Below are positions 27,181-51,971 of a stretch of 64,000 bases of DNA, piece by piece. The stretch's first letter is position 1, and each line of letters begins with the position of its first letter. The position numbers and the translations under genes are program-made. Under the pieces are notes generated by a model. It was not told the DNA's origin. It did no database searches and saw nothing but the letters and a program-made list of their open reading frames with translations. The DNA comes from Eubacteriales bacterium (GTDB lineage Bacteria > Bacillota > Clostridia > Oscillospirales > RGIG5299), in contig JAZQKU010000043.1 in assembly GCA_045542315.1 (NCBI GenBank), positions 3,041 through 67,040 on the forward strand. Direction: 5' to 3'.

Positions 27181-27225
27181 ACAACTAACTGATAAATAAG
27201 AATTTGTGCCTTGGAGGAAATTTGT

Positions 27226-27984: not shown

Positions 27985-28018
27985 GATAGATAAATTCCAA
28001 TTTGTCGCTCTCTTATAA

Positions 28019-31030: not shown

Positions 31031-31056
31031 CGTTACGGGCGGTTTTCGATTTATAT
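31031..31056. terminator. bidirectional terminator after cotJC
   Basis: CCGCCCG-TTA-CGGGCGG stem flanked by AAAA and TTTT. Confidence 0.6.
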
Positions 31057-35440: not shown

Positions 35441-36049
35441 ATGGCAAAAAGAAAAAACAACTATGAAAAAATGGTAACTGTGGCTCTTCTTATGGCAATC
35501 GTTGCCGTTCTTCAGATAATTTGCACCTTTATAAAGTTCGGCCCCTTTTCGATAACGCTTGCGCTCACGCCCGTAGTGATCGGCGCGGCGCTTTACGGCT
35601 GGAAGGTCGGCGCAGGGCTTGGATTTGTCTTTTCCGCGGTTGTATTTATCAGCGGTATTGCAGGCTGGGACGGCGGCTTTATCAATATGATGCTTAACTA
35701 CAACGCCGTTGCAACCGTTTTGGTATGCTTCGGAAAGGGCACTCTTGCGGGGCTTTTCGCAGGGCTCATCTACCGCCCTCTTACCAAGGTTAACGATACC
35801 GCCTCTGCGGTTATAACGGGCGCTTTGGCACCGATTGTCAACACGGGACTTTTTGCCGTAACGATGCTCACCGTTTTCTGGGGCTTCCTTGCGGGAAACG
35901 CGCCTGCCGACGGTTCAATGTCGCCCGTGGCGATGCTTTTCCTTTCATGGATAGGAGTGAATTTCCTCGTTGAGCTTGTAACGAATATCGTTTTAAGCTC
36001 CGTTACCGTGAGAGTCGCGAGAATTTTTGAAAAGAAAAAGTCAAAATAA
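35441..36049 (+). CDS. ECF transporter S component-like membrane protein
   Basis: 202 aa, 6 TM helices, Gly-rich helices typical of ECF S units. Substrate unknown. Confidence 0.6.
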   Translation: MAKRKNNYEKMVTVALLMAIVAVLQIICTFIKFGPFSITLALTPVVIGAALYGWKVGAGLGFVFSAVVFISGIAGWDGGFINMMLNYNAVATVLVCFGKGTLAGLFAGLIYRPLTKVNDTASAVITGALAPIVNTGLFAVTMLTVFWGFLAGNAPADGSMSPVAMLFLSWIGVNFLVELVTNIVLSSVTVRVARIFEKKKSK

Positions 36050-36065
36050 TTTTACCGAAAATTAA

Positions 36066-36095
36066 AAAACGGGGCGTTTTGCCCCGTTTTTATTT
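36066..36095 (+). terminator. rho-independent terminator
   Basis: ACGGGGC / GCCCCGT stem plus TTTTTATTTT. Confidence 0.75.
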
Positions 36096-36398: not shown

Positions 36399-36426
36399 TT
36401 GACAAATCGCATAAAAGGTATATAAT
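36399..36426 (+). promoter_or_regulatory. sigma-A type promoter of the ABC operon
   Basis: TTGACA, 16 bp spacer, TATAAT. Preceded by phased A-tracts and a TGCACAA half-site (36388-36394). Confidence 0.5.
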
Positions 36427-36485
36427 ATATATTACTGAAATTGTCGTTTCAGCGTCTATCATTTTCCCAGAAAGGATTGAAGCAA

Positions 36486-39400
36486 ATGCAAAACAAGAAA
36501 AAGCTCACCAGGCTTTTATCGGTAGTGCTTGCAGTGTTTCTCGTGTTGCCTCTCGTCTTCGGTATGACAGGCTACGCCGCCAATGAGCTTTACGGCGCAG
36601 AGAACCCCTACACCGATGAAATGATCCAAGAGCTTATGGACATCCCCTTCTACTCGGTATTGAGGAGAAAATACGAAAAGGCGGGCTACAAGGCTCCCTC
36701 CGATTCTCCCGAAAATACCATCGTGGTCAAGCCCGAGGAGATTACCACGGAAAACGGAGAAAAGGTTACTCTTTCCAACTGCGGTCCCGCAGACGGTCAG
36801 AAGAACGCTTTTTTCTGGACCTACGATAACAAAACCGCTACCTGGACCTTTGAGGTTAAGGAGTCGGGACTTTATCAGTTCAACCTCGAATACTACCTCC
36901 CCACAGGTAAGGGTGCAGATCCCGTAAGAAAGCTCACCGTTGACGGCACTAAGCTTTACTACGAGGCCGATAACCACATATTCTACCGTTATTTCAAGGA
37001 CGAAAACGGTGCTGACCGCGTTCTTAACACCGACGGCGACGAAATGCGTCCCCGCGCTATTGAGATCGACAGATGGCGCTCTGTTGACGTCGTTGATTAC
37101 TACGGCTTCTCGTCAACTCCCATTGCCATCTACTTCGAGGCAGGCACCCATTCGGTAACGATGGAGTACTACTCGGGTGATATGGCTGTCGGTGATTTCA
37201 CCGTTTTGCCGATGAAGAACTACAAGAGCTACGCCGAATATAAGGCACAGCTTGAGGCAGACGGTCTTTTCGTTCAGGCAGGCGACGTTGATCCCATCAC
37301 CTTTGAGGCTGAGTTCCACACCGAGAGAAACGGAAGCGCTATCCGCCGCGAGGCTGACGGTGACCCCGCTTGCTCTCCCTATCAGTGGGATAAGAAGATA
37401 CTCAACATCATCGGTGCGGGCACCTGGTATAAGGCCAATAAGGCTATCACCTGGACCTTCAACGTTGAAAAAGCAGGCGTTTACAAGATCGCTCTCCGTC
37501 AGTTCCAGGCTTATAACGACAATGTCTCATCTTACAGAAAGATCGAGATAGACGGCGAGGTACCCTTCGCAGAGTTTAACGAGTATGAGTTTGAGTACAG
37601 CAAGAACAAGAGCTGGAAGAACTACACTCTCAACATCGACGACGAAGCGGTATATTACTACTTCGGCGAGGGTGAGCACACCATCACCATGACGGTTGTA
37701 ATGGGCGGCTACACCGAGGTTATTCAGTCGATCTACTACGATATGCAGCTCATGACCGATTTCATGAACGATATCCGTACCATCACCGGTGCAAACCCCG
37801 ACTACAACTACGACTACGGCTTCTACGATAACGACGATAAGAGAGGCTTCAAGGTCAAGTTCCAGAAGATGAGCGACAGTATGGCCTGGAAATACGATTT
37901 CCTCGTTAAAAACTCGCGCACCGGAAAGATCCCCTCGATGGCAAACAGCTTTAAGTTCTTAAAGACCTCGTTTGACACCGCTATCAAGTATGAGTACCGT
38001 ATTGCAAAGCTCTACGATACCGACTTCTTAAGCGCACAGTCGAGCCTCTCGACCTACTACTCGCAGTTACAGTCACAGAATCTCGCGATAGACGACTTTA
38101 CGATATATAACGACAGCTACACACTTCCCAAAAGAGAAGCCACCGTCTGGCAGAAGCTTTCTTCTTCAATTAAAAACTTCTTCCTCTCCTTCACCAAGGA
38201 TTACGACAGCATCAAGGGTGTTCAGGGTGCTGCACAGCCTGAGGAGATCGTTAAGGTATGGATCGCCCGCGGTATCGACTGGGCAGAGCTCTTCAAGGAG
38301 CTTGCGGATACCACCTTCACTCCCGAATCGAAGATAGGCGTTCAGCTCTCGATCATGCCTGCAGGTCAGCTCACCGCAGGTGCTACCAACGCTCTTATGC
38401 TTGCGATCGCATCGGGTAAGAATATTCCCGACATTTGTATATCCTCCGACACCGGTTCTCCCGCAGAGTTTGCGGTTCGTGAAGCAACTCTCGACCTTAC
38501 TCAGTTTGAGGATTACGATATAGTTAAAGAGTGGTTCCTTGACGTTTGCATGAACCCCCTTACCTATACCGACGCTGAAGGTCACGCAGGCGTTTACGGT
38601 CTTCCCGAAACGATGGACTTCAAGGTATTCTTCTACCGCACCGATATATTCGAGGAGCTCGGTCTTGAGGTTCCCGAAACCAGAGAAGATATATACAATT
38701 ATATTATGCCCGCTCTCTACCGTCAGCAGATGACCGTAGGTATGGGCAGAGACGAGCTCACCTACATCCTTCAGCACGGCGGCAGCCTCTACACCGAGGA
38801 TCTTCTTTATTCGGGTCTCGGCACTCCCGAGGCATACCTCGCAATGAAGGAGCAGACCGACCTCTTCACAAAATACGCAGTTCCGATTGCGCAGGATTTC
38901 TACAACCGCTTCCGTACCGGTGAAACCCCCTGCGGTATCGGTACCTTCGCAACCTACATTCAGCTTAAGGCAGCGGCTCCCGAGCTTAACGGACGTTGGT
39001 CCATCGCATTGCTCCCGGGTCTTGAAAAGGTTAACACCGAAACCGGCGAGACCTACGTTGACCGCAGCCACAGCGGCTCGATCGCAACCGCATCCTTCAT
39101 TATGGCAATGACCGAGAAGCCCGACGAGTGCTGGGAAATTCTCAAATGGTGGATGAGCGAGGAAACCCAGACCGAGTACGGCGTATCCATAGAGGGTATC
39201 GTCGGTGAAAGCGCAAGATGGAACTCGGCGAACCTCGCCGCATTCGACAAGATGAACTGGAACGTTGAGGACCTTAAGGTCATTCGCGAAACCAGAAACT
39301 GGGTTTACGAATATCCCTACGTTCTCGGCGGTTACTTCACCACCCGTCATCTTACCAACGCATACACCAAGGTCGTTATGAGCGCAGGCAACCTCAGAGA

Positions 39401-39497
39401 TGCTCTTGAATCCGCAGTAAGAGATATCAACCGCGAGCTCAAGATGAAGCACGAGGAATACGGCCAGGGTCACCTTTATGAAACGGAGGGAGTATAA
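36486..39497 (+). CDS. giant extracellular solute-binding protein (about 1003 aa) with two N-terminal CBM-like modules
   Basis: Signal peptide; duplicated TWTFEVKESGLYQFNLEYY / TWTFNVEKAGVYKIALRQF beta-sandwich signatures; C-terminal family-1 SBP region. ATG 36486 follows GAAAGGA. Confidence 0.75.
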   Translation: MQNKKKLTRLLSVVLAVFLVLPLVFGMTGYAANELYGAENPYTDEMIQELMDIPFYSVLRRKYEKAGYKAPSDSPENTIVVKPEEITTENGEKVTLSNCGPADGQKNAFFWTYDNKTATWTFEVKESGLYQFNLEYYLPTGKGADPVRKLTVDGTKLYYEADNHIFYRYFKDENGADRVLNTDGDEMRPRAIEIDRWRSVDVVDYYGFSSTPIAIYFEAGTHSVTMEYYSGDMAVGDFTVLPMKNYKSYAEYKAQLEADGLFVQAGDVDPITFEAEFHTERNGSAIRREADGDPACSPYQWDKKILNIIGAGTWYKANKAITWTFNVEKAGVYKIALRQFQAYNDNVSSYRKIEIDGEVPFAEFNEYEFEYSKNKSWKNYTLNIDDEAVYYYFGEGEHTITMTVVMGGYTEVIQSIYYDMQLMTDFMNDIRTITGANPDYNYDYGFYDNDDKRGFKVKFQKMSDSMAWKYDFLVKNSRTGKIPSMANSFKFLKTSFDTAIKYEYRIAKLYDTDFLSAQSSLSTYYSQLQSQNLAIDDFTIYNDSYTLPKREATVWQKLSSSIKNFFLSFTKDYDSIKGVQGAAQPEEIVKVWIARGIDWAELFKELADTTFTPESKIGVQLSIMPAGQLTAGATNALMLAIASGKNIPDICISSDTGSPAEFAVREATLDLTQFEDYDIVKEWFLDVCMNPLTYTDAEGHAGVYGLPETMDFKVFFYRTDIFEELGLEVPETREDIYNYIMPALYRQQMTVGMGRDELTYILQHGGSLYTEDLLYSGLGTPEAYLAMKEQTDLFTKYAVPIAQDFYNRFRTGETPCGIGTFATYIQLKAAAPELNGRWSIALLPGLEKVNTETGETYVDRSHSGSIATASFIMAMTEKPDECWEILKWWMSEETQTEYGVSIEGIVGESARWNSANLAAFDKMNWNVEDLKVIRETRNWVYEYPYVLGGYFTTRHLTNAYTKVVMSAGNLRDALESAVRDINRELKMKHEEYGQGHLYETEGV

Positions 39498-40405
39498 TGG
39501 CATCGTCACTTGCATTAAGAAAGCCTAAAAAGGCAAAGCTTGAGAAAAACTGGGTCGGCCTTCTTTTCTTCCTTCCCTTCTTTATTCTCTTCATCGTATT
39601 TACCATCGCTCCCGTTTTAGTTGCCATGGGTCTTTCTCTTACCAATTATAATATGATACAGACCCCTGATTTCAGCGGCATCACAAACTATAAGCTTTTG
39701 TTCCTTGACGACGATATATTTATTCTCTCGCTCAAGAACACCTTTACCTTCGCAATAATCACAGGTCCCGTAGGTTATTTGATGTCCTTCGTTTCTGCAT
39801 GGGTCATCAACAACCTCAAGTTCAAGACCGGATTTGCGCTTGCCTTCTATATCCCCTCCATCACCTCCGGTGTTGCGATGTCGGTTATCTGGCTCGTTGT
39901 TTTCTCTCCCGATAAATACGGTTACTTGAACAACTTCCTTATCAACGTAGGACTTATTTCGGAGCCTATCGCATGGACGCAGGACCCCACCCAGTTAATG
40001 ACGGTTATAGTCATCATTCAGATCTGGATGAGTATGGGCGGCGGCTTCCTGGTATTCCTTGCAGGTATTCAGAACCTCAACAGAGAGCTTCTTGAATCCG
40101 GTAAGATAGACGGTATCAAGACGAAGTTCCAGGAGCTTCAGTATATCATTCTTCCCTCGATGAAGCCCCAGCTCCTTTACGGTGCTATCACCTCTGTTAC
40201 CGGCGCACTCGGCGTTTACGATATCGCGGTTGCGGTTGCGGGCTTCCCCTCACCGAACTACGCGGTACATACCATAGTTGCTCATCTTTACGACTACGCC
40301 TTCGTAAGATTCCAGATGGGCTACGCATCAGCAATAGCAGTTGTACTCTTCGCAATGACCTTTATTATAGGTAAGATCATTATGAGAGTACTCAGATCCG
40401 AATGA
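39497..40405 (+). CDS. carbohydrate ABC transporter permease (MalF-like)
   Basis: 6 TM helices with an EAA-type loop (ESGKIDGIKTKFQELQYIILP). Its ATG overlaps the SBP TAA. Confidence 0.85.
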   Translation: MASSLALRKPKKAKLEKNWVGLLFFLPFFILFIVFTIAPVLVAMGLSLTNYNMIQTPDFSGITNYKLLFLDDDIFILSLKNTFTFAIITGPVGYLMSFVSAWVINNLKFKTGFALAFYIPSITSGVAMSVIWLVVFSPDKYGYLNNFLINVGLISEPIAWTQDPTQLMTVIVIIQIWMSMGGGFLVFLAGIQNLNRELLESGKIDGIKTKFQELQYIILPSMKPQLLYGAITSVTGALGVYDIAVAVAGFPSPNYAVHTIVAHLYDYAFVRFQMGYASAIAVVLFAMTFIIGKIIMRVLRSE

Positions 40406-40421
40406 GAAAGGAGGAGCAAAG

Positions 40422-41357
40422 TTGAATTACGAATCTACAAAGGTCATTGTAAAAGACCCTTTCAAAAAACGCGTTATTGAAAAGCTTAAGGATATACGCA
40501 GAGGATTCAGACATATCACTCCGGGCTGGGTAATGCTTTACGTATTTATGATATTACTCGCAGTCTTTTGTCTCCTCCCCATCGTATATATGATTTCGGC
40601 TTCCTTGAAGCCCTACGACGAGCTTTTCTACTTCCCGCCGAGATTCTTCGTTGAAAAGCCCACCTTCGATAACTTCACAAATCTTTTCTCGGCACTTTCA
40701 AACTCCACCGTTCCCTTTACCCGTTATCTCTTTAACAGTATCGTGATCACGGTGGCAACCGTTGTCGGCACCTGCCTTGTTTGCTCGATGGGTGCTTACG
40801 GTCTTTCAAAGTTTAAGATCCCCGGCGGCAATACGATATTCAATATCATCATTGCTACCCTTATGTTCTCCCCCTACGTAACGAGAATCCCCTCCTTCCT
40901 CGTTGTTTCCAACCTGGGATTGCTTGACAGCTTTGCGGGTATCGTTATAGTTTCGGTAGGTACCTCGAGTAACTTCTTCCTTATGAAGCAGTTTATCGAC
41001 CAGTATCCCTACGAGCTTATAGAGGCGGCGAGAATAGACGGCGCAGGCGAATTCAGAATATTCTGGAAGATCGTTATGCCCGCACAGAAGCCGGCGCTCT
41101 CCGCACTTATAGTTTTCTCCTTCGTTGCGTCGTGGAACGATTACTTTACTCCCCTTATATTCCTCTCGCAGCAGTCGATGAGAACTCTCCCGTTGGCACT
41201 CCAGAGCCTTGCGGGCGGCGCGGGCGCAGCAACACTTGCAACCGCAGGTATTACCGCAGCGGCGTCACTCCTTATGACACTCCCCGTTGTAGTAATATTC
41301 GTTATAATGCAGCGTAAGGTTATTGAAACGATGACCTATGCAGGTATTAAGGGTTAA
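40422..41357 (+). CDS. carbohydrate ABC transporter permease (MalG-like)
   Basis: EAARIDGAGEFRIFWKIVMP EAA motif. TTG start follows AAGGAGG. Confidence 0.85.
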   Translation: MNYESTKVIVKDPFKKRVIEKLKDIRRGFRHITPGWVMLYVFMILLAVFCLLPIVYMISASLKPYDELFYFPPRFFVEKPTFDNFTNLFSALSNSTVPFTRYLFNSIVITVATVVGTCLVCSMGAYGLSKFKIPGGNTIFNIIIATLMFSPYVTRIPSFLVVSNLGLLDSFAGIVIVSVGTSSNFFLMKQFIDQYPYELIEAARIDGAGEFRIFWKIVMPAQKPALSALIVFSFVASWNDYFTPLIFLSQQSMRTLPLALQSLAGGAGAATLATAGITAAASLLMTLPVVVIFVIMQRKVIETMTYAGIKG

Positions 41358-41370
41358 GGAGGAACTGAAG

Positions 41371-43749
41371 ATGAAAAAAGCAAAGCGTATAATCAGTGCC
41401 CTCCTTGCAGCTCTTATGCTTGTCGTTCTCCTCACCACGAGTGTAGGAGCGGCAAGCAACAGCTACATTCCCAACGGCACCGACGGAAAGACCTCCATAC
41501 CCACCACCTATAGCGTTGAAACCGTTATAATGGAGATCGAGGTCAAAAAGCAGTTTACCTATAATAAGGTAACGGCAACTCATAAGGTCACCGATGACGA
41601 AGGCTTTACCTACGAGGTAAACGAGTGGGAAACCCTCACCTTCGAGCCCGGCGACATTATTGAATTGTCCTCACCCGAGGATCTCTTTATCGACAACGAA
41701 AACAATATGTACGTTGCCGACACCAAAAACGGCAGAATACTCAAGTTCAACCGCGATCAGGAGCTTCTCGGAATCTGGACCGGCGTTATCGCAGATAACG
41801 TTAAGACTGCCATAAAAGGCACCGGTGAAAACGCACAGAAAAAAGAAGTCATCGTTGAAGACGAATTTATCGGCTTTGCCGATCCCAAGGGCGTATTCGT
41901 TGCAGACTTTGAAAACAACACCGTTTACGTTGCAGACACCGGTAACAGAAGAATCGTTGCCCTCAATCAGGAGGACGGCTCTTGCGTAAGAATTTACGGC
42001 GTTCCGAAGTCCGACCTCATTATCGACGAGGAGATCCAGAACAACTATTCTCCCGCAAAGATAGTAAAGACCAAGACCGGCTGGCTCTACGTTGTTGTTA
42101 AGGAAGCGGTCATGACCCTTGACGATAACAACGTTTTCCAGGGCTACTACGGTCAGGCAGCGGTTGCATTCGACCTTGAGCTTGCTATCTACCGTGCACT
42201 CGGCCTTCAGGAGTATATTGACAGACAGGCAAAGACCTATGCAAGCTTCTATTTGAATATAACCCTCGGAAACGACGGAATGATCTACGCCGTTACCCAG
42301 GATAACCTCGGCGGCGAGGTAAAGAAGCTTAACTCCGTAGGCGATAACATTTACAAGAACTACGGCGGCGTCGGCGGCGGAAGCATCTACGATTCACTCG
42401 TTGCAAGCTTCTTCTCAAGCGCCACAAACCCCTTGGCTCTCCTCTTTGCAAAGACCAACATTCTCGGTGAGACCTTCTGGTTCGGCGAGCGTGTTAACGA
42501 GGACGGCCTCTACACCTTCCCCGTATTCGCAGATATCTGCGTTAATAACGACGGTATCGTAACCGTTCTGGAAAGAAACAACGGTAAGCTTTATCAGTAC
42601 GACGCAGAGGGCAACTGCCTCACCGTTTTCGGCGGACTCGGCGCTTCGAAGGGTACCTTCGAATATCCCGAATCACTCGCTACCGACTCTGAAGGCAACA
42701 TCTACGTTCTTGATAAGAACTTAAACTCCATTCAGATATTCAAGCCCACTGCCTTCATCAAGCTCGTTCACTCTGCTGTTAAGCAGTATTCAGAGGGTCA
42801 GTACGACGCAGCCTCCGAGACCTGGAAGGAAGTCCTCAAGATGACCTCCACCTACGATATGGCTCACGTCGGCCTTGCAAAGACCGAATTCAAGGACGGC
42901 AACTACGACAAGGCAATGGACCTCTACTATCTCGCACAGGACCGTGCAGGCTATTCGCAGGCATTCTCCGAATGGCGCCGCGAGGCATTCAGAAACTATT
43001 TCCCCCTTATTATAATAGGTATAGCGGCAATAGGATTTGCATTTATAATGCTCATTAAGGGCATCAACAAGACCGCAGACCTTGCTCTCTCCTTCTCCTC
43101 CGAGGAAGGCAGAAAGAAATGGTCGGCAAAGAAGAACGCGCAGATATTCGTTGGAACGATACGCTCGCCCTTCAAGCTGTTTGACAGCGTAAAGGGTGCA
43201 AACGCAAAGCTTATGTGGTGGCCTCCGATAGTGGTTTACGCTCTCGTGGTCGTTGTAAGAATCGCTTACATCTTCCTCGTCCACTACCCGCTTGCGGATA
43301 TCGAGCCCAGAAACGCAAACATTCTTCTTGAAATAATCAAGATGCTCATTCTCCCGATTACCTGGTCTGCCGCATCTATCGCGGTAACCTCTATCTGGGA
43401 CGGTGAATCGAGATTCAAGGAAATCTTCTATGCAACCGCAATGGCACAGATTCCTTACATCTTCGTAACCACCCTTCTCATTCCCTTGAGCCACGGCCTC
43501 TGCCAGGAAGAATACGATATTTACAGCTCTCTTATTCAGATAGCTTCTTATTGGGTAATATTCCTCATGCTCGGATCGCTCAAGAGTCTTAACGATTACA
43601 GCGTTGGAAAGACCATCCGCGTTGCAATAGTAATTCTTATTATGATGGCTCTTATCTGGCTCGTATGTATCCTCGGCGTCACCCTCATCGGCCAGGTTAT
43701 CAACTTCTTCGAGAGCATTGCTCTTGAAATCCGAATGATGTTACTGTAA
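41371..43749 (+). CDS. NHL-repeat / TPR / Yip1-domain membrane protein
   Basis: Signal peptide; NHL blades (NMYVADTKNGRILKFN, TVYVADTGNRRIVALN, NIYVLDKNLNSIQIF); TPR-like segment (GQYDAASETWKEVL...GNYDKAMDLYY); C-terminal 5-TM Yip1-like region. Confidence 0.7.
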   Translation: MKKAKRIISALLAALMLVVLLTTSVGAASNSYIPNGTDGKTSIPTTYSVETVIMEIEVKKQFTYNKVTATHKVTDDEGFTYEVNEWETLTFEPGDIIELSSPEDLFIDNENNMYVADTKNGRILKFNRDQELLGIWTGVIADNVKTAIKGTGENAQKKEVIVEDEFIGFADPKGVFVADFENNTVYVADTGNRRIVALNQEDGSCVRIYGVPKSDLIIDEEIQNNYSPAKIVKTKTGWLYVVVKEAVMTLDDNNVFQGYYGQAAVAFDLELAIYRALGLQEYIDRQAKTYASFYLNITLGNDGMIYAVTQDNLGGEVKKLNSVGDNIYKNYGGVGGGSIYDSLVASFFSSATNPLALLFAKTNILGETFWFGERVNEDGLYTFPVFADICVNNDGIVTVLERNNGKLYQYDAEGNCLTVFGGLGASKGTFEYPESLATDSEGNIYVLDKNLNSIQIFKPTAFIKLVHSAVKQYSEGQYDAASETWKEVLKMTSTYDMAHVGLAKTEFKDGNYDKAMDLYYLAQDRAGYSQAFSEWRREAFRNYFPLIIIGIAAIGFAFIMLIKGINKTADLALSFSSEEGRKKWSAKKNAQIFVGTIRSPFKLFDSVKGANAKLMWWPPIVVYALVVVVRIAYIFLVHYPLADIEPRNANILLEIIKMLILPITWSAASIAVTSIWDGESRFKEIFYATAMAQIPYIFVTTLLIPLSHGLCQEEYDIYSSLIQIASYWVIFLMLGSLKSLNDYSVGKTIRVAIVILIMMALIWLVCILGVTLIGQVINFFESIALEIRMMLL

Positions 43750-43764
43750 AGGAGGCAATGAATT

Positions 43765-46700
43765 ATGAAATTTAAAAAGTTTTTAGCTGTTTTATCAGTT
43801 CTCGTAATGGTTTTACCCCTTTTCTCGTTCATGGCCTCTGCCGATACAAAGGCTGACAAGGAAGTTTACGAATTCCCCGCACAAAGCCTTGCCGAGCTTG
43901 AAATCGATTGGGATAACCCCATTGCGGAAAACGGCAGCCTTAAAATGTACTTCGTACGTTACAGCGGCCTTGCAAAGGAAACCCAATTTGCCGCAGATAA
44001 GGTCATAGTTGACCGCCTCACCGGCATTACCGACGCTATTTATATAGAAGAGGTCGGTGAGACAAGACCCTCCGGACTTATCGTTGGCGGAATGATAACT
44101 CCCGCAAACGGTATAACGAGCGACCTTCAAAAGGCAAATTTTGCCGCAGGCACTCTCGTTACCGAGATCGACGATCAGCCCATCACCTCTATTGAGGACT
44201 ACGTTAAGGTTCTTGAATCAAAGAAGCTTGGCGATAAGATCAAGCTTTCCTACGTTAACAGAAGCGGCGACAAGAACGACTCTGCCAGCGAAACGATTAC
44301 CGATGAAAACGCTACCGCTCCCAAGTCGCTCGTAATGAAGGACTATTACAAGCAGAACCTTACCACCAACGAATTCGGCGTGGTTCTCGGAAGCCTTAAG
44401 GTTCCCGAGGGAATGACCGAGGCTGAGTTCAAAAAGATCGTTAAGGCTCCCGCAGGCGCAATTATCGTAGGCGCCGAGTATAAGGTTGAGATCAAAAAGG
44501 CAAGCGGCGCTGCGATCAAGGACCCCGCAACCGGCGAAGCTCCCGCAAGCAACAAGGGAGAACAGAAGATCAAAGAAGTCGAGTCTGTCGATCAGCTTAT
44601 TGAGTTTATCGAAAACTTCGAAAGAGATTATGCATATTACACCGGCATCCGCCAGGAGAAAAACACCATCTCCGTTTCCTTCAAGATAACCTATCAGTTT
44701 TACGAGGAAAAGAGCGCTACCGTTACCGCAGGCGTTCAGACCGATTCACTTTTCGTTCTCGACAGCCAGAATCCCGAGGCTCCCTATCTTTGGAGAGCGG
44801 GCGTTGACGAGACCGAGTACGACATCGCAGACCCCAACATCGTAGGACGTTGGAAGAACATTATGAGATCTCTCGTAGTTCTTTATGCCGACCAGCTTCG
44901 CGCAGAGTCTGCTACCGGTACAAAGGTAACCTACTCCTCTGCAGACGATAAGGAATGCACAACGAACTACGCCGTTAAAAACGGCAAGCTTATTTACAGC
45001 GTTGATTTCAAAAACGCAGAGATAAAATTCGACGTTGAGTTCGGTCTTGTTGACGGAAGCTTCTACGGAAAGATCCTTAATAAATCCATCAGCGAATACG
45101 ACGACGGCGAAGGCGCAAAGAGAATAATCGATATTGAGCTTATGCCCTTCTTCGGAGCGGTAAACAGCGTAAGAAACGGTTATTCCATCGTTCCCGACGG
45201 CTCGGGCATGATGATAAACTTTGCCGAAAACGTAAACAGCATCTACGCCAAGGAATACGCCTTCTCGGTTGGCGGAAGCGATATTCTTGATATGGATAAA
45301 TACCTCAAGAATAAAAACCTTCTCGAAAACACCAACCTTCCCGTATTCGGTATGGCAAACCTCGATAAAAACGTTGCATTCGTCGGTTATTCGGCTACGG
45401 CTGACGCCGAGGCTTCGGTAATTACCTCTCCCGCAGGCTATGCGGTTGATATCTACCGTTCTTCTCTCCGCTTCCGTTACCGCTACACCACCGATATTCT
45501 CGCAACCAACATCACCACCACCGGCGCAGGAAATGCGATCGACCGTACCCAGAACCTCAATATCAAGCGTATTGCAGGTAAGAGATACACCAACGAGATC
45601 GTTTGCGATAAGGACCATGAGGTTCGCTACAAGCTCCTCTCGGGTGAAAACGCAAACTACAGCGGAATGGCTAACGCCTACAGAAGCTACCTCATTGCAA
45701 ACGGCGATCTCAAGAAGAATATTCTCGCAAACGAGGATATGCCCATAATGATCGACTTCTTTATGGCAACCTGGGAAAGCCAGATACTCTTTACAAAGAT
45801 CGTAAAGATGACCTCTTTTGCAGACGCAAAGGAAATTGCCGCTGACCTTTATGATAACGGCGTTACCAACATTTACGCAAACTTCGTTGGCTACGTCAAG
45901 GGCGGTTACGGCAAGAACCCGAGAATCTGGCCTATTGAAAATGCAATAGGCGGCGCAAACGGCGCAAGAGATTTTGCCGAGTTTGCAGATGCAAAGAATA
46001 TCAAATCGCTTCTTTCGATCGAGCCTATTCTTGCTTCTCTCGATAACGGCGGCTTCTCAACCAAGAACGATATCGTAAACTTCGGTAACTCCGTTGCAGT
46101 TTCCGATAAGAAGGGCGATAAGTATTTCCTTAACGCTCCCGCAGTTTTGAAGAAGCTCAACGGCTTCACCAAAAACGTTGATTCCATCAACTTCAGCGGC
46201 GTTGCTCTTGAGACCATAGGCAATATGCTCACCCAGAACTACAAGGGTAAGGCGCTTATCGAAACCAGAACCGACACCTTGAACAGATGGGACGAGGCTC
46301 TTAAGAATCTTTCGGAAAAGACCGATATGCTCGCAGTAGAGGGCGCATCGCTTTACAGCCTTAAGTATTCGAACCACATTCTCGGAATGCCCAACAAGTC
46401 TTCCGAATATCACATCACCTATAAGTCGGTTCCCTTCGTTCAGCTTATACTTCACGGCTTTGTAACCTACACCGACGAGCCTATCAACCTCTTCTACGAC
46501 CAGAACGTCCAGAAGCTTCAGCTCATTGAGTACGGTTGCATTCCTTACTACAAGATAACCAAGGAAGCCACCGAGAAGCTTAAGCTTGCTGATTATAACG
46601 AGCTCTTCTCCTCCGAGTATTCGCAGTGGAAAGAGGATATCGTATCCTTCTACACGGAATGCAACGAAAAGCTTGCAGAGGTCTGGAATCAGCCGATGGT

Positions 46701-46833
46701 ATATCACGAAAATAACGGCACCACAGCTATAGTAAGATATGAAAACGGCAAAACTCTTCTTATCAACTATACCGCAGCCGAGCTTGTGATCGAAGGCGTC
46801 ACCGTTGGCGCATACGATTACGAGGTTAAATGA
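43765..46833 (+). CDS. 1022-aa secreted protein with PDZ-like segment and DUF5696-like C-terminal region
   Basis: Signal peptide and a PDZ-like GTLVTEIDDQPITSIEDYVKVLESKKLGDKIKLSY segment. The DUF5696 assignment is from recall of synteny with Yip1 and ABC permeases. Confidence 0.55.
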   Translation: MKFKKFLAVLSVLVMVLPLFSFMASADTKADKEVYEFPAQSLAELEIDWDNPIAENGSLKMYFVRYSGLAKETQFAADKVIVDRLTGITDAIYIEEVGETRPSGLIVGGMITPANGITSDLQKANFAAGTLVTEIDDQPITSIEDYVKVLESKKLGDKIKLSYVNRSGDKNDSASETITDENATAPKSLVMKDYYKQNLTTNEFGVVLGSLKVPEGMTEAEFKKIVKAPAGAIIVGAEYKVEIKKASGAAIKDPATGEAPASNKGEQKIKEVESVDQLIEFIENFERDYAYYTGIRQEKNTISVSFKITYQFYEEKSATVTAGVQTDSLFVLDSQNPEAPYLWRAGVDETEYDIADPNIVGRWKNIMRSLVVLYADQLRAESATGTKVTYSSADDKECTTNYAVKNGKLIYSVDFKNAEIKFDVEFGLVDGSFYGKILNKSISEYDDGEGAKRIIDIELMPFFGAVNSVRNGYSIVPDGSGMMINFAENVNSIYAKEYAFSVGGSDILDMDKYLKNKNLLENTNLPVFGMANLDKNVAFVGYSATADAEASVITSPAGYAVDIYRSSLRFRYRYTTDILATNITTTGAGNAIDRTQNLNIKRIAGKRYTNEIVCDKDHEVRYKLLSGENANYSGMANAYRSYLIANGDLKKNILANEDMPIMIDFFMATWESQILFTKIVKMTSFADAKEIAADLYDNGVTNIYANFVGYVKGGYGKNPRIWPIENAIGGANGARDFAEFADAKNIKSLLSIEPILASLDNGGFSTKNDIVNFGNSVAVSDKKGDKYFLNAPAVLKKLNGFTKNVDSINFSGVALETIGNMLTQNYKGKALIETRTDTLNRWDEALKNLSEKTDMLAVEGASLYSLKYSNHILGMPNKSSEYHITYKSVPFVQLILHGFVTYTDEPINLFYDQNVQKLQLIEYGCIPYYKITKEATEKLKLADYNELFSSEYSQWKEDIVSFYTECNEKLAEVWNQPMVYHENNGTTAIVRYENGKTLLINYTAAELVIEGVTVGAYDYEVK

Positions 46834-47966
46834 AAAGGGGTGAAGAAGAATTGAAAAACGATGAGAATAAAAACCTCGCGGAGTCGGCAGAGAATATTGC
46901 TCCCGTTTCCGAAAAGGTAGAAACCAAAAAAGAAAAGGCTCCCAAAGCTCCCAAAGCCCCCAAGGCTCCCAAGGAGAAGAAGGTAAAGGCCAAAAAAGAA
47001 CCCAAGCCCTATAAGGACCCCTCAAAGTTTACCGTATGGCTCAAGAGAAAGATAGATCTTGAAAAGAGAGCAGCTCTTGAAGGATATTTCTTCACCACGC
47101 CTCTTATAATCGGTCTTTTGGTCTTCTTTGCATTCCCCTTAGGTCTCTCGATTGTTTTAAGCTTCTCGGAGCTTGAAAAAATGGTTGGCTTTGAAATGCA
47201 CTGGATAGGCTTTAAAAACTACATCGACGTTGTTTTGAACGACGTGCGCTTCACAACGGCGCTTGGCGAGATCTTCTCCGATACCTTTATTAAAATTCCT
47301 CTTATAATTGTTTTCGCGCTTCTTCTTTCAATAATTATAAGCAGAAACATAAAGGGAAAAGGCTTCTTCCGAGTAGTATTCTTCCTCCCCTTCATATTGG
47401 GAACCGGATACGTTCTTGAGCAGCTTTATTCACTCGGCGTTGTGTCGCAGGCTCTTTCACTTGACTCCTCGTCGCTCATTCCTCCCTCGGTTATCGCTTA
47501 CCTCGGCGGCGACTTTACCGCAATGGTAAACGAGTTCCTCGGAATAATCGTTTCGGTTCTGTGGTCCTGCAGCGTTCAGATACTTATGTTCCTTTCGGGA
47601 CTTCAGAGCATTTCGCCCACTCTTTACGAGTCTGCCGGCGTTGACGGCGCTACCGAGTGGGAAAAATTCTGGAAGATAACTCTTCCGATGATAATGCCCA
47701 TCATGGTCGTTAACATCATCTACTCTATCTGCGATTCCTTCGTAAATGTTGAGAACGGAGTTCTCACCCTTATTAAGGACCTCACCTACGGTGCAGGCGC
47801 ACAGATGGAAAAGGCAGCCGCAATTTCCTGGATCTACACACTTATTATAATGGCATTCGTCGGCATAGTCTTCCTCTTCCTCGGAAGAAGCTACGGATCA
47901 GATACTACGAAAGGAGCGAATGAACGTGCAATCAGAAAAGCTAAAAAGCGCCGCTATAATTGGTAA
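46830..47966 (+). CDS. carbohydrate ABC transporter permease (MalF-like) with a 70-aa K/P-rich N-terminal extension
   Basis: ATGA overlap with the upstream stop. KAPKAPKAPKAPKEKK tract followed by 6 TM helices. Confidence 0.8.
   Translation: MKRGEEELKNDENKNLAESAENIAPVSEKVETKKEKAPKAPKAPKAPKEKKVKAKKEPKPYKDPSKFTVWLKRKIDLEKRAALEGYFFTTPLIIGLLVFFAFPLGLSIVLSFSELEKMVGFEMHWIGFKNYIDVVLNDVRFTTALGEIFSDTFIKIPLIIVFALLLSIIISRNIKGKGFFRVVFFLPFILGTGYVLEQLYSLGVVSQALSLDSSSLIPPSVIAYLGGDFTAMVNEFLGIIVSVLWSCSVQILMFLSGLQSISPTLYESAGVDGATEWEKFWKITLPMIMPIMVVNIIYSICDSFVNVENGVLTLIKDLTYGAGAQMEKAAAISWIYTLIIMAFVGIVFLFLGRSYGSDTTKGANERAIRKAKKRRYNW
46938..46973 (+). repeat. 4 x 9-bp tandem repeat encoding (A/K)PK
   Basis: GCTCCCAAA GCTCCCAAA GCCCCCAAG GCTCCCAAG. 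Confidence 0.8.
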
Positions 47967-48951
47967 GCTCTTTAAGAGAGAGCCCAAGCCCAAAAAGCCC
48001 CGCATGACAAAGGAAGAATTCGTGCAGACCTATAAGCGCAAGATCAAGCAGCCTCAGTTCTGGGGTTCCGTCGGTCTTAATATAGGAATGTATATCCTTC
48101 TTATCGGTATTGCATTCATCTTCCTTTACCCCTTTATATTTATGATAATAACCTCCTTGAAATCCAATTCCGACCTTATCGACCCCACCATCGGTTGGAT
48201 TCCGAGATATCTTCGCTGGGAAAACTATGCAATGGCGTTTAAGCTTATGGGCTTTACCAAATATATCGGTAACTCGGTGCTTATCACTCTTGTATGTACC
48301 CTCGGTCATCTTATATCCTGCACCTTCGTAGGATACGGTCTTGCGAGATTTAAATTCAAGGGAAGAGGACTTCTTTTCTTCCTCGTTATCCTTACCATTA
48401 TAATCCCGATTCAGACCACCATCACTCCCAGCTACATTATGTTTGCAAACATCAAGTGGCTCAATACCTTCCTTCCCACCTTCGTACCCTCCTTCCTCGG
48501 ACTCGGACTTAAGGGCGGTCTCTTCATCTTCCTTGCAAGAAACTTCCTTTTAGGACTCCCGAAGGAAATGGAAGAAGCAGCGAGAATCGACGGATGCTCT
48601 TTCATCGGCATATTCTTCAGAATAGTTGTTCCGATAGTAAGACCTCTTCTTCTCGTTATTCTCGTTCTTTCGCTCGTTTGGCACTGGAACGATTACTATG
48701 AGCCCTCGCTCTACTTCAAGCAGGATATGCAGCCTCTCTCAACCGGTATTAAAGAGCTTATAACTCTTTCGAAGCTTACCGACGAAGAACGCGAGAGAAT
48801 TCTCGGACGTCCCGTAACCGACGACGATATAGTTAACACCGCAACGGTTATGGCGGGAAGCTTCATTACCCTTACTCCCCTTATCGTAATGTTCATGTTC
48901 TTACAGAAGCAGTTCATTCAGGGCGTTGAGAGAACGGGTCTTGTTGAATAA
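47920..48951 (+). CDS. carbohydrate ABC transporter permease (MalG-like)
   Basis: EAARIDGCSFIGIFFRIVVP EAA motif. ATG follows AAAGGAG and lies 47 nt inside the upstream gene. Confidence 0.85.
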   Translation: MNVQSEKLKSAAIIGKLFKREPKPKKPRMTKEEFVQTYKRKIKQPQFWGSVGLNIGMYILLIGIAFIFLYPFIFMIITSLKSNSDLIDPTIGWIPRYLRWENYAMAFKLMGFTKYIGNSVLITLVCTLGHLISCTFVGYGLARFKFKGRGLLFFLVILTIIIPIQTTITPSYIMFANIKWLNTFLPTFVPSFLGLGLKGGLFIFLARNFLLGLPKEMEEAARIDGCSFIGIFFRIVVPIVRPLLLVILVLSLVWHWNDYYEPSLYFKQDMQPLSTGIKELITLSKLTDEERERILGRPVTDDDIVNTATVMAGSFITLTPLIVMFMFLQKQFIQGVERTGLVE

Positions 48952-49023
48952 TCAATAATTCTCCGCCGATGCATAACGGCATTGGCGGAGAATAAAAGCA
49001 AAAACAGAAAGAACGGTGTAAAA

Positions 49024-49800
49024 ATGATTATAGACGCACACGCACACATCGGCGAGATAAAGGACTTTCTTTGCTTTGACCCGTCGGTTGAAAACCTTTT
49101 AAAGAGAATGGACGAGCTTAAGGTTGACGTCGTTATCAATGCAGACTATTACGGTCTTGACGTTCCGGATTTTGACCGCGGCGCAGAGGTAAGCATCAAT
49201 CTTTACAACGTTTCAAACGGAAAGCTCGTAAACTATTTCAACTATAACCCCAAGCATATGGAAAAATGCCTCGAGGTCATTGAGAAATATCACGATCATC
49301 CCGCATTCGTTGGCATAAAGATCCACCCCTCCATGCACCACATCTTTGCAGACGACGAAAGCTACCGTCCCGTTTGGGAGATCGCAAAGAAATACGACCT
49401 TCCCATTATGTCGCACACCTGGGCGCTTTCCGATTACAACCCCCGTCAGAAGTTTGCTGTTCCCGGTCTCTTTGAGAAATATATCAAAGAATATCCCGAG
49501 GTTGACTTCATCTTCGGTCATTCGGGCGGCAGAACAGAGGGTGTAAGAGAGGCTGCGGCCTTGGCTGCAAAATATGCAAACGCATACCTCGATATAGCAG
49601 GCGATCCTTTTGAGTTCGGCGTTGTTGATTACCTTGTCAAAAACGGCGGCGAGGATAAGGTCCTCTTCGGAACCGACGTTTTCTGGTTCGACTTTTCTCC
49701 CCAGCTCGGAATGGTGCTCGGCGCCAACATTTCCGACGAAGCAAAGGAAAAGGTATTTAAGACAAACGCTCTCAAGGTGTTTAAAAAGCTTAACAAATAA
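49024..49800 (+). CDS. amidohydrolase-family metal-dependent hydrolase
   Basis: MIIDAHAHIGE N-terminal HxH motif, with later H and D ligands (GHSGG, GTDVFW). Confidence 0.75.
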   Translation: MIIDAHAHIGEIKDFLCFDPSVENLLKRMDELKVDVVINADYYGLDVPDFDRGAEVSINLYNVSNGKLVNYFNYNPKHMEKCLEVIEKYHDHPAFVGIKIHPSMHHIFADDESYRPVWEIAKKYDLPIMSHTWALSDYNPRQKFAVPGLFEKYIKEYPEVDFIFGHSGGRTEGVREAAALAAKYANAYLDIAGDPFEFGVVDYLVKNGGEDKVLFGTDVFWFDFSPQLGMVLGANISDEAKEKVFKTNALKVFKKLNK

Positions 49801-49804
49801 TCGT

Positions 49805-49836
49805 AAATCCTCCGCGAAAAGCGGAGGATTTTATTT
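49805..49836 (+). terminator. rho-independent terminator
   Basis: AAATCCTCCGC-GAAAA-GCGGAGGATTT stem followed by TAT. Confidence 0.75.
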
Positions 49837-49839: not shown

Positions 49840-49868
49840 TTGACATATTTTAAATAGTATGCTATAAT
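49840..49868 (+). promoter_or_regulatory. sigma-A type promoter of the glmS leader
   Basis: TTGACA, 17 bp spacer, TATAAT (consensus). Confidence 0.6.
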
Positions 49869-49899
49869 ATTATAAAAGAAAGCAGTGAATGCAAGGTAT

Positions 49900-50100
49900 A
49901 TACGTAGCGCCGGCTCCGCGAAAAGCGGAGGACGAGGACGGGGATCATCGAAATTTTCGGCGGATATTCCCGCGGCTTGAGGCAGTCGAAAGACAGAGGC
50001 AAATACCCCTGTAAAGGGGCAACAGATCCTGCTGTCACGCCTTTTGCATTCACCTGACTTTTAGGGGCATTAAGCCCCGCGGCAAGTGAAGCACGCAGTT
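49900..50100 (+). ncRNA. glmS ribozyme (GlcN6P-dependent self-cleaving riboswitch)
   Basis: A|GCGCC cleavage-site motif at 49906/49907, a P1 hairpin CTCCGC-GAAA-AGCGGAG, and the conserved core GACGAGGACGGGGATCATCGAAATTTTCGGCGGATATTCCCGCGG. It lies directly upstream of glmS. The 3' boundary is approximate. Confidence 0.85.
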
Positions 50101-50168
50101 TAAAAGCTCGCACCTTTTAAGCTGCAGGCTTTGTTGTGCTTGCCTGAAAAAGAAAGGTGGATTTTTTT

Positions 50169-51971
50169 ATGTGCGGAATTGTTGGTTACAGCGGAAAAAG
50201 AGAAGCTAAAGAGGTGCTTGTAAGCGGCCTCTCAAAGCTCGAATACAGAGGCTACGACTCGGCGGGTATTGCCGTTTCAAAGGCTTCGGGCGTGGAAACG
50301 GTCAAATCGAAGGGCAGACTTCTTGAGCTTACCAAAAAGCTTGAGGCTCTGGATATGAGCGGAAACGTCGGCATCGGTCACACGAGATGGGCAACCCACG
50401 GCGAGCCCTCCGATGCAAACTCTCACCCCCACAGAAGCGGAAGAGTAACTCTCGTACACAACGGCATTATTGAAAACTATATGCAGCTTAAGGAAAAGCT
50501 TATAAACAAGGGCAAGACCTTCGAGTCGGATACCGATACCGAGGTAGTCGTCGCGCTTATCGACCATTATTACTCCGATGACCCCATTGCCGCCATCTAT
50601 AAGGCAATAGGCAAGCTTCGCGGCTCCTACGCTCTTGCTATAATTTTCGACGATATCCCCGACACCGTTTACGCAATAAGAAAGGACAGCCCTTTGGTTA
50701 TCGGCGTCGGCAAGGAGGAGATAATAATCGCCTCCGATATCCCCGCATTCCTTTCGGAAACGAGGGATTACTATCTTCTTGACGAGGGCGAGCTTGCCAT
50801 CGTTAAAAACGGTGCGGTAAGATTTACCGACGAGTGGCTTACCGAGCGCAAAAAGGAGCTTCTCACCGCATCGTGGGATATTGAGGCGGCTGAAAAATGC
50901 GGATATCCCCACTTTATGCTAAAGGAAATGCACGAGCAGCCCAAAACGCTTAAGGACACGATATTCCCCCGCATAGGCGAAAAAGGCGAAATACTTAAAA
51001 ACGAGCTTAAAGACACCTCTTATATCAAAAGACTTCACATCGTAGGCTGCGGAAGCGCAATGCACGCAGGCCTCTTGGGCAAGGCGTTTATTGAAAAATA
51101 TGCGCGCGTTCCCGTTTCGGTTGAGATAGCTTCGGAATTCCGCTATGCAAATCCCGTTCTTTCGGAGGGCGACGTTATCGTGCTTATCTCCCAGTCGGGC
51201 GAAACGGCAGACAGTCTTGCCGTTATCAAGCTTGCAAAGGAGCTTAATATTCCCACTATCGGCATCGTAAACGTTGTAGGTTCCTCTATTGCAAGAGCGG
51301 CCGACACCGTTATCTACACCAATGCAGGCCCCGAGATCGCGGTTGCGACCACCAAAGCATACACCGCACAGGTTTCTGTCCTCTATCTTTTGGGACTCCG
51401 CCTTGCAGCCGACAGAAAGACGATTTCCGATTCCGATTACAATGATATCGTGAATGCACTTAAGGTCCTTCCCGAGAATGCCGAGAAGGTGCTTGAAAAG
51501 GAAGAGGACTACAAGCGTCTTGCATCGGTCTATCAGAACGCGAAGGATATGTTCTTCATCGGCAGAGGTCAGGACAGCGCTCTCTGTTGCGAGGGCTCCT
51601 TGAAGCTCAAGGAGATATCTTATATGCACTCCGAGGCCTATGCGGCAGGCGAGCTTAAGCACGGCACCATCTCGCTTATCACCGACGGTGTTCCCGTTGT
51701 CGCCGTTGCGACCACCGAGGCAATGTTTGAAAAGACGGTAAGCAACATAAAAGAAGTCACCTCCCGCGGTGCCGACGTTGTATTTGTCACCCAGTTTGAC
51801 GATGCGGGCGGCTTCTATAAGGATAAGATACAGCTCCCCGCTATCCACGAGGCAATAATGCCTATCCTTGCGATAATTCCCTTGCAGCTCTTTGCCTATT
51901 ACGTTTCGATAGACAGAGGCTGTGACGTTGACAAGCCCAGAAATCTCGCAAAATCGGTAACTGTTGAATAA
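50169..51971 (+). CDS. glmS: glutamine--fructose-6-phosphate aminotransferase
   Basis: MCGIVGY N-terminal nucleophile Cys, two SIS domains and the C-terminal KSVTVE motif. Confidence 0.95.
   Translation: MCGIVGYSGKREAKEVLVSGLSKLEYRGYDSAGIAVSKASGVETVKSKGRLLELTKKLEALDMSGNVGIGHTRWATHGEPSDANSHPHRSGRVTLVHNGIIENYMQLKEKLINKGKTFESDTDTEVVVALIDHYYSDDPIAAIYKAIGKLRGSYALAIIFDDIPDTVYAIRKDSPLVIGVGKEEIIIASDIPAFLSETRDYYLLDEGELAIVKNGAVRFTDEWLTERKKELLTASWDIEAAEKCGYPHFMLKEMHEQPKTLKDTIFPRIGEKGEILKNELKDTSYIKRLHIVGCGSAMHAGLLGKAFIEKYARVPVSVEIASEFRYANPVLSEGDVIVLISQSGETADSLAVIKLAKELNIPTIGIVNVVGSSIARAADTVIYTNAGPEIAVATTKAYTAQVSVLYLLGLRLAADRKTISDSDYNDIVNALKVLPENAEKVLEKEEDYKRLASVYQNAKDMFFIGRGQDSALCCEGSLKLKEISYMHSEAYAAGELKHGTISLITDGVPVVAVATTEAMFEKTVSNIKEVTSRGADVVFVTQFDDAGGFYKDKIQLPAIHEAIMPILAIIPLQLFAYYVSIDRGCDVDKPRNLAKSVTVE

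Follow-up and report, generated by a model that had tools for sequence, protein, structure and literature searches.

A fixed seven-gene cassette of Bacillota with two ABC permease pairs, a candidate compound carbohydrate importer with extracellular accessory proteins

Introduction

ATP-binding cassette (ABC) importers of the CUT1 family are the main glycan uptake route of Gram-positive gut, rumen and soil bacteria, and they are usually pictured as one solute-binding protein (SBP), two permeases and a shared ATPase. Here we describe an operon of eight genes (g1 to g8) at 36486-49800 on the forward strand of a 64,000-nt stretch of contig JAZQKU010000043.1 from a Eubacteriales bacterium; this whole stretch is called the window, and its positions are used as coordinates throughout. 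The operon encodes a giant binding protein (g1), a first MalF/MalG-like permease pair (g2 and g3, pair 1), a membrane protein with NHL, TPR and putative Yip1 domains (g4), a secreted DUF5696 protein (g5), a second permease pair (g6 and g7, pair 2) and an amidohydrolase (g8). With moderate confidence we read it as a streamlined version of a cassette that is widespread in Bacillota and would constitute a compound two-module CUT1-type carbohydrate importer with extracellular accessory proteins, and the role of this cassette is probably the capture and import of complex glycans. Like CUT1 importers that share an MsmX or MsmK ATPase (MalEFGK2 type, TC 3.A.1.1), the operon has a family-1 SBP domain, UgpA/MalF-like and UgpE/MalG-like permeases with EAA loops and no ATPase gene of its own, and some relatives of the cassette adjoin an ATPase gene of the MalK type (OB_MalK and TOBE domains). 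In contrast to such importers, it has two diverged permease pairs with obligatory NHL/Yip1 and DUF5696 partners, and its binding protein, a fusion with two CBM35-like modules and a helical stalk, has a hydrophobic N-terminal anchor instead of a lipid.

Surface capture, glycan-active proteins and ABC import are combined in one locus, with SBPs suited to large ligands, also in Gram-positive polysaccharide utilization loci (gpPULs) and in the AlgQ-AlgM1M2SS system of Sphingomonas sp. A1, and an orphan SBP encoded in the window resembles AlgQ1/2. A gpPUL is defined as a locus that unites a regulator, a transporter and one or more enzymes that degrade polysaccharides. In the window the transporter is present, but the enzyme-like part is only a GH129-like protein of doubtful activity, and there is neither a regulator nor a classical carbohydrate-active enzyme, unlike many relatives of the cassette that are flanked by glycoside hydrolase and response regulator genes. 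To our knowledge, a fixed seven-gene core with two translocons has been described neither in gpPULs nor in AlgQ-AlgM1M2SS.

The g5 protein shares a three-domain fold and profile-level homology with glycoside hydrolase family GH129, represented by the alpha-N-acetylgalactosaminidase NagBb of Bifidobacterium bifidum and the GH129-like 3,6-anhydro-D-galactosidase ZGAL_3152 of Zobellia galactanivorans. It differs from these enzymes in its low identity to them (approximately 11-20%), in the column of the NagBb acid/base residue, which is not conserved in DUF5696, and in the Asn and Tyr that it carries at the best-conserved acidic positions of its family; moreover, it has an extra PDZ-containing N-terminal region and is always encoded beside ABC permeases. 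For g4, a precedent is found in YknWXYZ of Bacillus, where assembly of the ABC transporter YknXYZ is modulated by YknW, a member of the Yip1 family (PMC4887032). In both systems the gene of a polytopic membrane protein, of Yip1 type in YknW and putatively so in g4, accompanies those of a Firmicutes ABC transporter, with which the protein presumably assembles. However, YknYZ, which has a membrane-fusion protein, is an exporter of the MacB type, whereas the partner in our operon is an importer of the MalFG type, and the Yip1-type region of g4 comes fused or coupled to an extracellular propeller of NHL repeats and to TPR helices.

Results

Conservation of the Cassette in Bacillota

Species-representative genomes were scanned with a locus query derived from a 15-sequence subset of DUF5696, and at least 573 DUF5696-encoding loci were identified in Bacillota; the DUF5696 family comprised 4290 cluster representatives at 50% identity (E-value of 1e-30 or better). 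Gene orders were compared by phmmer searches of the window proteins against all open reading frames (ORFs) of the 80 best loci, taken as the top tblastn matches, and of 8 loci fetched by protein identity, and the related loci are numbered L001 onwards. Of the 80 best loci, essentially every one with enough flanking sequence showed g1-g2-g3-g4-g5-g6-g7 in this order and on the same strand, and the seven genes had the same order in five more contexts with upstream flank (L005-L008 and L171). The cassette was found in Paenibacillus, Lederbergia, Amphibacillus, Gracilibacillus, Halalkalibacter, Caldicoprobacter, Acetatifactor, Anaerotaenia, Roseburia, Oscillospiraceae, Ruminococcus, Haloplasma and Izemoplasmatales, with the closest relatives of the window locus in metagenome-assembled genomes of Clostridia, and several genomes carried two or more copies. 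Across Bacilli, Clostridia and Haloplasma, the gene order was identical at protein identities of 20-29%. Since the same order recurs across Bacillota classes, the arrangement is not due to chance. A first, sequence-only reading of this DNA had mentioned a synteny of Yip1, DUF5696 and permease genes in Clostridia and Paenibacilli; this synteny is real and very strongly conserved.

Four loci (L169, L055, L056, and L071) contained a half-cassette composed of NHL-Yip1, DUF5696 and pair 2 without g1-g3, and in L169 (6606-13351) the 9 kb to each side of the half-cassette contained no SBP gene. Moreover, NHL-Yip1 and DUF5696 were never found apart from pair 2 in the approximately 90 contexts examined. 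The half-cassettes thus define g4-g7 as the invariant core, with the giant SBP and pair 1 as a second module, and by tying g4 and g5 to pair 2 they replace the initial view of accessory genes inserted between two equivalent permease pairs. That the modules are separable, and that each pair is complete with its EAA loops, could also be expected if the operon merely held two ordinary and independent ABC sugar importers with unrelated genes between them. However, neither the tight or overlapping junctions, nor the constant order at such low identity, nor the strict association of NHL-Yip1 and DUF5696 with pair 2 agrees with this explanation, and the conservation of the cassette effectively excludes two unrelated transporters, an arrangement we consider very improbable.

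No mention of DUF5696 or PF18952, and no account of this gene combination, was found in the searchable literature, which likewise contained no characterized homologous locus, in line with the original description of the locus as uncharacterized. In conclusion, the parts of the cassette are of known kinds (CUT1, the GH129 superfamily, NHL, and Yip1), while its fixed architecture is undescribed in the searchable literature.

Organization of the Operon

The eight co-directional genes are enclosed by a single promoter at the 5' end and a single terminator at the 3' end (Table 1), as had been proposed from the ORFs, and the tight junctions that had been pointed out were confirmed by reading the sequence. 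These are a TAATG overlap of g1 and g2 at 39497, a 4-nt ATGA overlap of g5 and g6 at 46830, and a 47-nt overlap of g6 and g7, where the ATG at 47920 is preceded by an AAAGGAG ribosome-binding site (RBS). The overlap of g5 and g6 is the tightest junction and was found again in 46 of 83 loci. In contrast, g3 and g4 do not overlap, since the ATG of g4 lies 13 nt past the stop codon of g3; a longer g4 ORF from 41338 was not supported by an RBS and was rejected. For g1, a TTG start at 36441 was dropped in favor of the RBS-backed ATG, which yields the protein length first suggested. The coupling of g8 is the loosest of the eight, as it is separated from g7 by a 72-nt spacer containing an inverted repeat, and through a role in processing, stability or attenuation this repeat could separate g8 from the cassette. 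Purifying selection acts on every gene of the operon, with dN/dS values of 0.06-0.20 and a value of approximately 0.2 for g5.

Table 1. Features of the operon and the orphan binding protein gene downstream of it (window coordinates).
Feature	Position	Strand	Details
Promoter	36399-36426	+	TTGACA, 16 nt, TATAAT; 12/12 match to sigma-70 consensus; AT-rich stretch upstream
g1, giant binding protein	36486-39497	+	1003 aa; ATG backed by RBS
g2, UgpA/MalF-like permease, pair 1	39497-40405	+	BPD_transp_1 4.9e-10
g3, UgpE/MalG-like permease, pair 1	40422-41357	+	TTG start behind AAAGGAGG; BPD_transp_1 7.4e-16
g4, NHL/TPR/Yip1 membrane protein	41371-43749	+	792 aa; ATG, RBS-supported
g5, secreted DUF5696 protein	43765-46833	+	1022 aa; DUF5696 3.5e-134
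g6, UgpA/MalF-like permease, pair 2	46830-47966	+	BPD_transp_1 2.6e-6
g7, UgpE/MalG-like permease, pair 2	47920-48951	+	BPD_transp_1 2.5e-14
Inverted repeat, g7-g8 spacer	48959-48992	+	TTCTCCGCC ... GGCGGAGAA; 9-bp arms, no T-run behind
g8, Amidohydro_2 hydrolase	49024-49800	+	258 aa; ATG 49024 the most likely start
Intrinsic terminator	49805-49831	+	hairpin of 11 pairs, then T-run
Orphan lipoprotein SBP	53217-54878	+	553 aa; lipobox LSAC; outside operon, 3.4 kb downstream

Two Permease Pairs and a Giant Binding Protein

The Pfam domain BPD_transp_1 was found in all four permeases, of which g2 was closest to UgpA, g6 was UgpA-like, and g3 and g7 matched UgpE (3e-43 and 5e-25, respectively), and each of them contains an EAA loop (residues 200-220 in g2, 201-220 in g3, 267-286 in g6, and 219-238 in g7). 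The membrane subunits that define CUT1 (TC 3.A.1.1), a MalF/MalG pair with EAA loops, are accordingly present twice, and the EAA loops in both pairs imply that they are presumably driven by an ATPase of the MalK/MsmX type encoded elsewhere in the genome. Pairs 1 and 2 share an identity of 24-27%, and in the related loci each permease was most similar to its positional counterpart. Together, these two observations rule out a recent duplication of one permease pair, and the pairs are, judging from their divergence, old paralogues. None of the operon's proteins reached an NCBIfam equivalog cut-off. The N-terminus of g6 (46830-47040, +) carries a Lys/Pro-rich repeat, KAPKAPKAPKEKKVKAKKEPKP, within a cytoplasmic extension of approximately 70 aa that is missing in most orthologues, which have a median length of 300 aa compared to 378 aa here. 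Overall, the comparisons show two complete and, by their loops, ATPase-competent CUT1 translocators, of which the second is inseparably linked to g4 and g5.

In the giant binding protein g1, a hydrophobic N-terminal anchor or signal precedes two CBM35-like modules, and a helical region connects these to a family-1 SBP domain at the C-terminus. No Pfam SBP match was obtained for g1 itself, but residues 601-869 matched solved family-1 SBPs (Lin1841, 5ysb, 1.5e-9; 5ci5, 4.7e-7) and its orthologues matched SBP_bac_1 and SBP_bac_8, and the family-1 extracellular binding protein of a CUT1 system is thus provided by the C-terminal domain. A profile of the N-terminal half, built from 78 orthologues, matched CBM35 modules of CITase (5x7g, 5.6e-9) and CsxA (2vzp, 1.6e-4) across two separate stretches, and Pfam searches of the 78 orthologues returned Golvesin_C in 45 and CBM_35 in 23. 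Between these modules and the SBP domain, the g1 profile was matched by coiled-coil-like helical structures. A lipobox was absent in 73 of 77 giant SBPs and present in the remaining 4, compared to 66 of 78 neighboring small SBPs that have one, and many giant SBPs start with an apparent uncleaved signal anchor.

The NHL/TPR/Yip1 Protein

The assignment of NHL and TPR domains to g4 held in both sequence and structure comparisons, with a Yip1 domain as a borderline candidate. Pfam matches were obtained for NHL (3.8e-15) and TPR, while the Yip1 score of 25.2 bits fell slightly below the cut-off of 28.6; orthologues of g4 bear unmarked Yip1 matches. In the AlphaFold2 (AF2) model (pLDDT 84), a signal peptide precedes a six-bladed NHL propeller (32-459), and TPR helices (461-542) and a long transmembrane helix lead from there to a helical bundle of Yip1 type (586-791). 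The top Foldseek matches of g4 were the NHL domains of TRIM71, Thin and Brat as well as Pizza6, with target-normalized TM-scores of 0.72-0.77 for TRIM71, Thin and Pizza6. A function of the propeller as a lyase or lactonase was not supported, as the top folds were NHL domains of the binding type and virginiamycin B lyase appeared far down the list. In 40 of 84 related loci, g4 is split into separate NHL and Yip1 genes.

The DUF5696 Protein Is a Remote Relative of GH129

The g5 protein matched Pfam DUF5696 (PF18952) with 449 bits, compared to a cut-off of 25.6, over profile positions 5-612 of 612, and a weak Pfam match to PDZ was backed by PDZ domains in the PDB at 2e-6, so that both parts of the initial PDZ/DUF5696 assignment stood. 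In the AF2 model (pLDDT 80, pTM 0.72), an N-terminal region of approximately 400 aa, which includes the PDZ domain and is specific to the clade of the window, is followed by a beta-sandwich, a (beta/alpha)8 barrel and a C-terminal beta-sandwich. Structure prediction and a Foldseek search had been proposed as a way of finding a glycoside hydrolase-like fold in g5, and they revealed one: ZgGH129 (1e-28) and NagBb (1e-23) ranked first, followed by GH36, GH101 and GH31, and with TM-scores of 0.68-0.70 to GH129 (target-normalized) g5 has the three-domain fold of that family. Using the DUF5696 family profile, the same GH129 chains of the PDB were found by sequence (hmmsearch, 1e-11), and hhalign of DUF5696 against full-length NagBb, which was recovered from metagenome contigs, returned a probability of 98.4-99%. 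In addition, GH129 fragments obtained in a search with an 87-aa piece of NagBb bear Pfam matches to both GH101 and DUF5696. As Foldseek, profile and hhalign comparisons agree, DUF5696 is a remote homolog of GH129.

Residue conservation was counted over 69 members of the DUF5696 family in window numbering. On the catalytic face of the barrel, most members have W710, D769, S824-D825, R835, N862, S880, D886-E887 and N908, and most also keep D478, a residue of the N-terminal domain that belongs to an invariant VPDGSG loop. Column 825, which is acidic in 61 of the 69, is the nearest well-conserved acidic column to D435 of NagBb, while the hmmsearch alignments of DUF5696 with GH129 end before D435. 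The GH129-like enzyme ZGAL_3152 shares only the catalytic Asp with NagBb and lacks the acid/base Glu (PMC5698469). The presence of D825, D886, W710 and N862 on a GH129-like barrel face in most members points to an ancestral enzyme, and on these residues DUF5696 looks like an enzyme family. In g5 of the window, however, the family residues D, D, E, W and N are replaced by N825, Y886, K887, Y710 and S862. The same holds for the window and its three closest relatives as a group, with Y or S at position 710; these four retain D478, R835, N908 and E922, have D or E at position 769, and the window protein also retains H897. The changes D825N and D886Y make catalysis in this clade doubtful, and DUF5696 may here have turned into a non-catalytic binding subunit. 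Five sequences lack both acidic residues, and three of these (the window, L004, and L007) also have no adjacent small SBP, a coincidence in small numbers that is only a hint.

We considered whether DUF5696 and the NHL/TPR/Yip1 protein are non-catalytic and form an extracellular dock or lid that replaces or aids an SBP, making pair 2 a lectin-gated translocon that is independent of SBPs, at least in this clade. The joint absence of the two best-conserved acidic residues of the barrel face and of an adjacent small SBP in the window clade would fit such a lid, as would the SBP-free surroundings of the L169 half-cassette, the translational coupling of g5 and g6 in most loci, the purifying selection that still acts on g5 and the resemblance of the NHL fold to binding scaffolds. 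On the other hand, most family members retain the residues that point to an ancestral enzyme, a conventional SBP is encoded in the great majority of related loci and an orphan SBP gene is found in the window itself, and we know of no precedent for an SBP-independent type I importer of the MalFG fold. On balance, a dock or lid of this kind appears rather unlikely.

ATPase, Second Binding Protein and Flanking Genes

The absence of a nucleotide-binding subunit from the operon was confirmed, and no gene for a MalK-type ATPase, for a regulator or for a classical glycoside hydrolase was detected in the whole 64-kb window; of the CUT1 components, the MalK/MsmX-type ATPase with its C-terminal regulatory domain is therefore the one missing here. 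In approximately 12 related loci, a MalK-type ATPase (ABC_tran, OB_MalK and TOBE_2, approximately 373 aa) is encoded directly upstream of the giant SBP gene. This makes the shared ATPase of the MsmK/MsmX type that had been suggested at the outset plausible, and in this genome it is probably provided in trans. The only ABC_tran gene of the window (56662-57666, -) encodes a 334-aa ATPase without OB_MalK or TOBE and overlaps the gene of a 586-aa protein without Pfam match; this ABC system at 54927-57666 (-) is unrelated and probably of the exporter type.

In 72 of 84 related loci, g1 is directly preceded or g7 directly followed by the gene of a conventional SBP of approximately 450 aa, usually a lipoprotein, and two permease pairs sharing one binding protein, as the operon alone had suggested, are thus not the norm of the family. 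In the window, an orphan SBP gene lies downstream of the operon (Table 1), with no permease gene beside it. Its product matched the Smon0123-type structure 5gx8 (2e-12) and AlgQ1/2 (6e-9) in the PDB, and the gene is found in the same position in L001 and L002, while homologs (approximately 1e-54) are located directly downstream of the cassette in L050 and approximately 3.5 kb downstream in L069. From its position and homologs, the orphan may supply the second SBP that the operon lacks.

In other taxa, the genes downstream of the cassette are variable but frequently encode GH10, GH38, GH20, GH43, GH113, GH29, GH16, GH30 or GH115 enzymes and OmpR-type regulators. In the window lineage, the cassette has neither a small SBP gene nor genes for an ATPase, a regulator or a glycoside hydrolase nearby, and this lineage is therefore a minimal variant. 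The amidohydrolase g8 (Amidohydro_2, 2.3e-27) has no signal peptide and only weak PDB matches (ACMSD, 2e-5). Since its gene is confined to the window and the closest relatives L001-L004, it does not belong to the conserved cassette, and g8 is instead predicted to be a cytoplasmic, lineage-specific downstream enzyme. Directly upstream of the operon, the S component of an energy-coupling factor (ECF) transporter is encoded (35441-36049, +) with its own terminator (36065-36091), and this adjacency is kept in L001-L004 together with DUF4364 and C_GCAxxG_C_C genes. Downstream, a consensus extended -10 promoter (49840-49868, +) and a glmS ribozyme (49895-50046; 72 bits, E-value of 1e-14) precede glmS (50157-51971).

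These surroundings raise the question of whether the operon has a housekeeping role in this lineage, such as recycling of the cell's own envelope or exopolysaccharide, rather than dietary foraging. A promoter of consensus strength, the lack of a regulator and of flanking glycoside hydrolases, and the proximity of glmS and glycolysis genes, or of ribosomal protein operons in L004, are consistent with such a role. However, glmS is not adjacent in L004, the cassettes of other taxa sit among xylanase, mannosidase and hexosaminidase genes and response regulators, and the two or more copies in several genomes suggest substrate diversification. A housekeeping function in place of glycan foraging is therefore quite improbable in our estimate.

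Other Features of the Window

Apart from the operon and its surroundings, the window contains a region of low GC content (0.38-0.39 compared to approximately 0.47) at 25373-29478 (+), where a tyrosine integrase and a large serine recombinase of 590 aa are encoded together with a phosphorylase-family protein (PNP_UDP_1); it is probably an integrated mobile element. A 928-aa protein encoded at 6092-8878 (-) combines a cadherin-like domain with a type I dockerin at its C-terminus, which points to the formation of cellulosome-type assemblies by the organism. Two uncharacterized proteins were also identified, a DUF5050 protein (23070-24131, +) and a polytopic membrane protein of 564 aa without Pfam match (31051-32745, -).

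Discussion

The gene order shared over Bacilli, Clostridia and Haloplasma, the two sets of CUT1 permeases and the binding and GH129-like proteins encoded with them led us to favor a compound, two-module glycan importer. Module A would consist of the giant binding protein, held in the membrane by its N-terminal hydrophobic segment, and the UgpA/UgpE-like pair 1, while module B would consist of the anciently diverged pair 2, always escorted by the NHL/TPR/Yip1 and DUF5696 proteins. In the mechanism that we propose, the CBM modules of g1 would catch a polymeric or otherwise large glycan at the cell surface, and an oligosaccharide would be passed from the SBP domain of g1 to pair 1. The Yip1 domain would serve as a membrane scaffold that places the propeller, the TPR helices and DUF5696 at pair 2, for which YknW offers a precedent (PMC4887032), and DUF5696 would trim or hold the glycan in the vicinity of this pair. 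The products would then be imported via pair 2 with the help of a conventional lipoprotein SBP in most species, a task in which the orphan SBP may assist here, and a single shared ATPase of the MalK/MsmX type would power both pairs.

A number of observations weigh against this reading. The 80 best loci, approximately 48 of which are from Paenibacillus, are not a random sample of the family, and the NHL fold of g4, being akin to binding scaffolds, gives no clue to a substrate. At positions 825 and 886, where the window has Asn and Tyr, its relatives are acidic in 61 of 69 and have Asp in 56 of 69. In the hhalign comparison, the region of NagBb D435 (D486 of ZGAL_3152) aligns near column 825, but with gaps and low confidence, and the acid/base residue E478 of NagBb aligns to E859 of the window in a column that is acidic in just 31 of 69 members. 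Finally, the window lineage has no regulator, no flanking glycoside hydrolase and no second SBP within the operon, and with housekeeping neighbors and a promoter of consensus strength a constitutive function fits better than inducible glycan foraging. The sequence-only reading had proposed a machine for extracellular polymer capture, processing and import. Capture and import are also part of the reading that we favor; processing, in contrast, is uncertain here, as the GH129-like fold speaks for it and the departure of this clade from the family consensus at the best-conserved acidic positions speaks against it.

A more far-reaching version of the two-module importer is a single surface supercomplex, a Gram-positive counterpart of the Sus-type machines, in which a Yip1-anchored scaffold of propeller and TPR helices would hold the GH129-like protein over the second translocon. 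Binding or cleavage of the glycan would be mechanically coupled to import, which would thus be gated by an enzyme or a lectin, while the CBM-SBP fusion would feed the first translocon and an MsmX-type ATPase would be shared. We regard such a supercomplex as possible but rather doubtful.

The cassette departs from the customary picture of a CUT1 importer, as its seven genes form a fixed unit that encodes two translocons, an SBP fused to CBM modules, and GH129-related and NHL/Yip1 proteins, and some genomes have several copies of it beside different glycoside hydrolases. Working out this cassette would give a function to a large DUF family and a new accessory role to Yip1 and NHL proteins. It would also show how Gram-positive bacteria couple the capture or processing of glycans at the cell surface to their import, and would improve the annotation of polysaccharide utilization in microbiome genomes.

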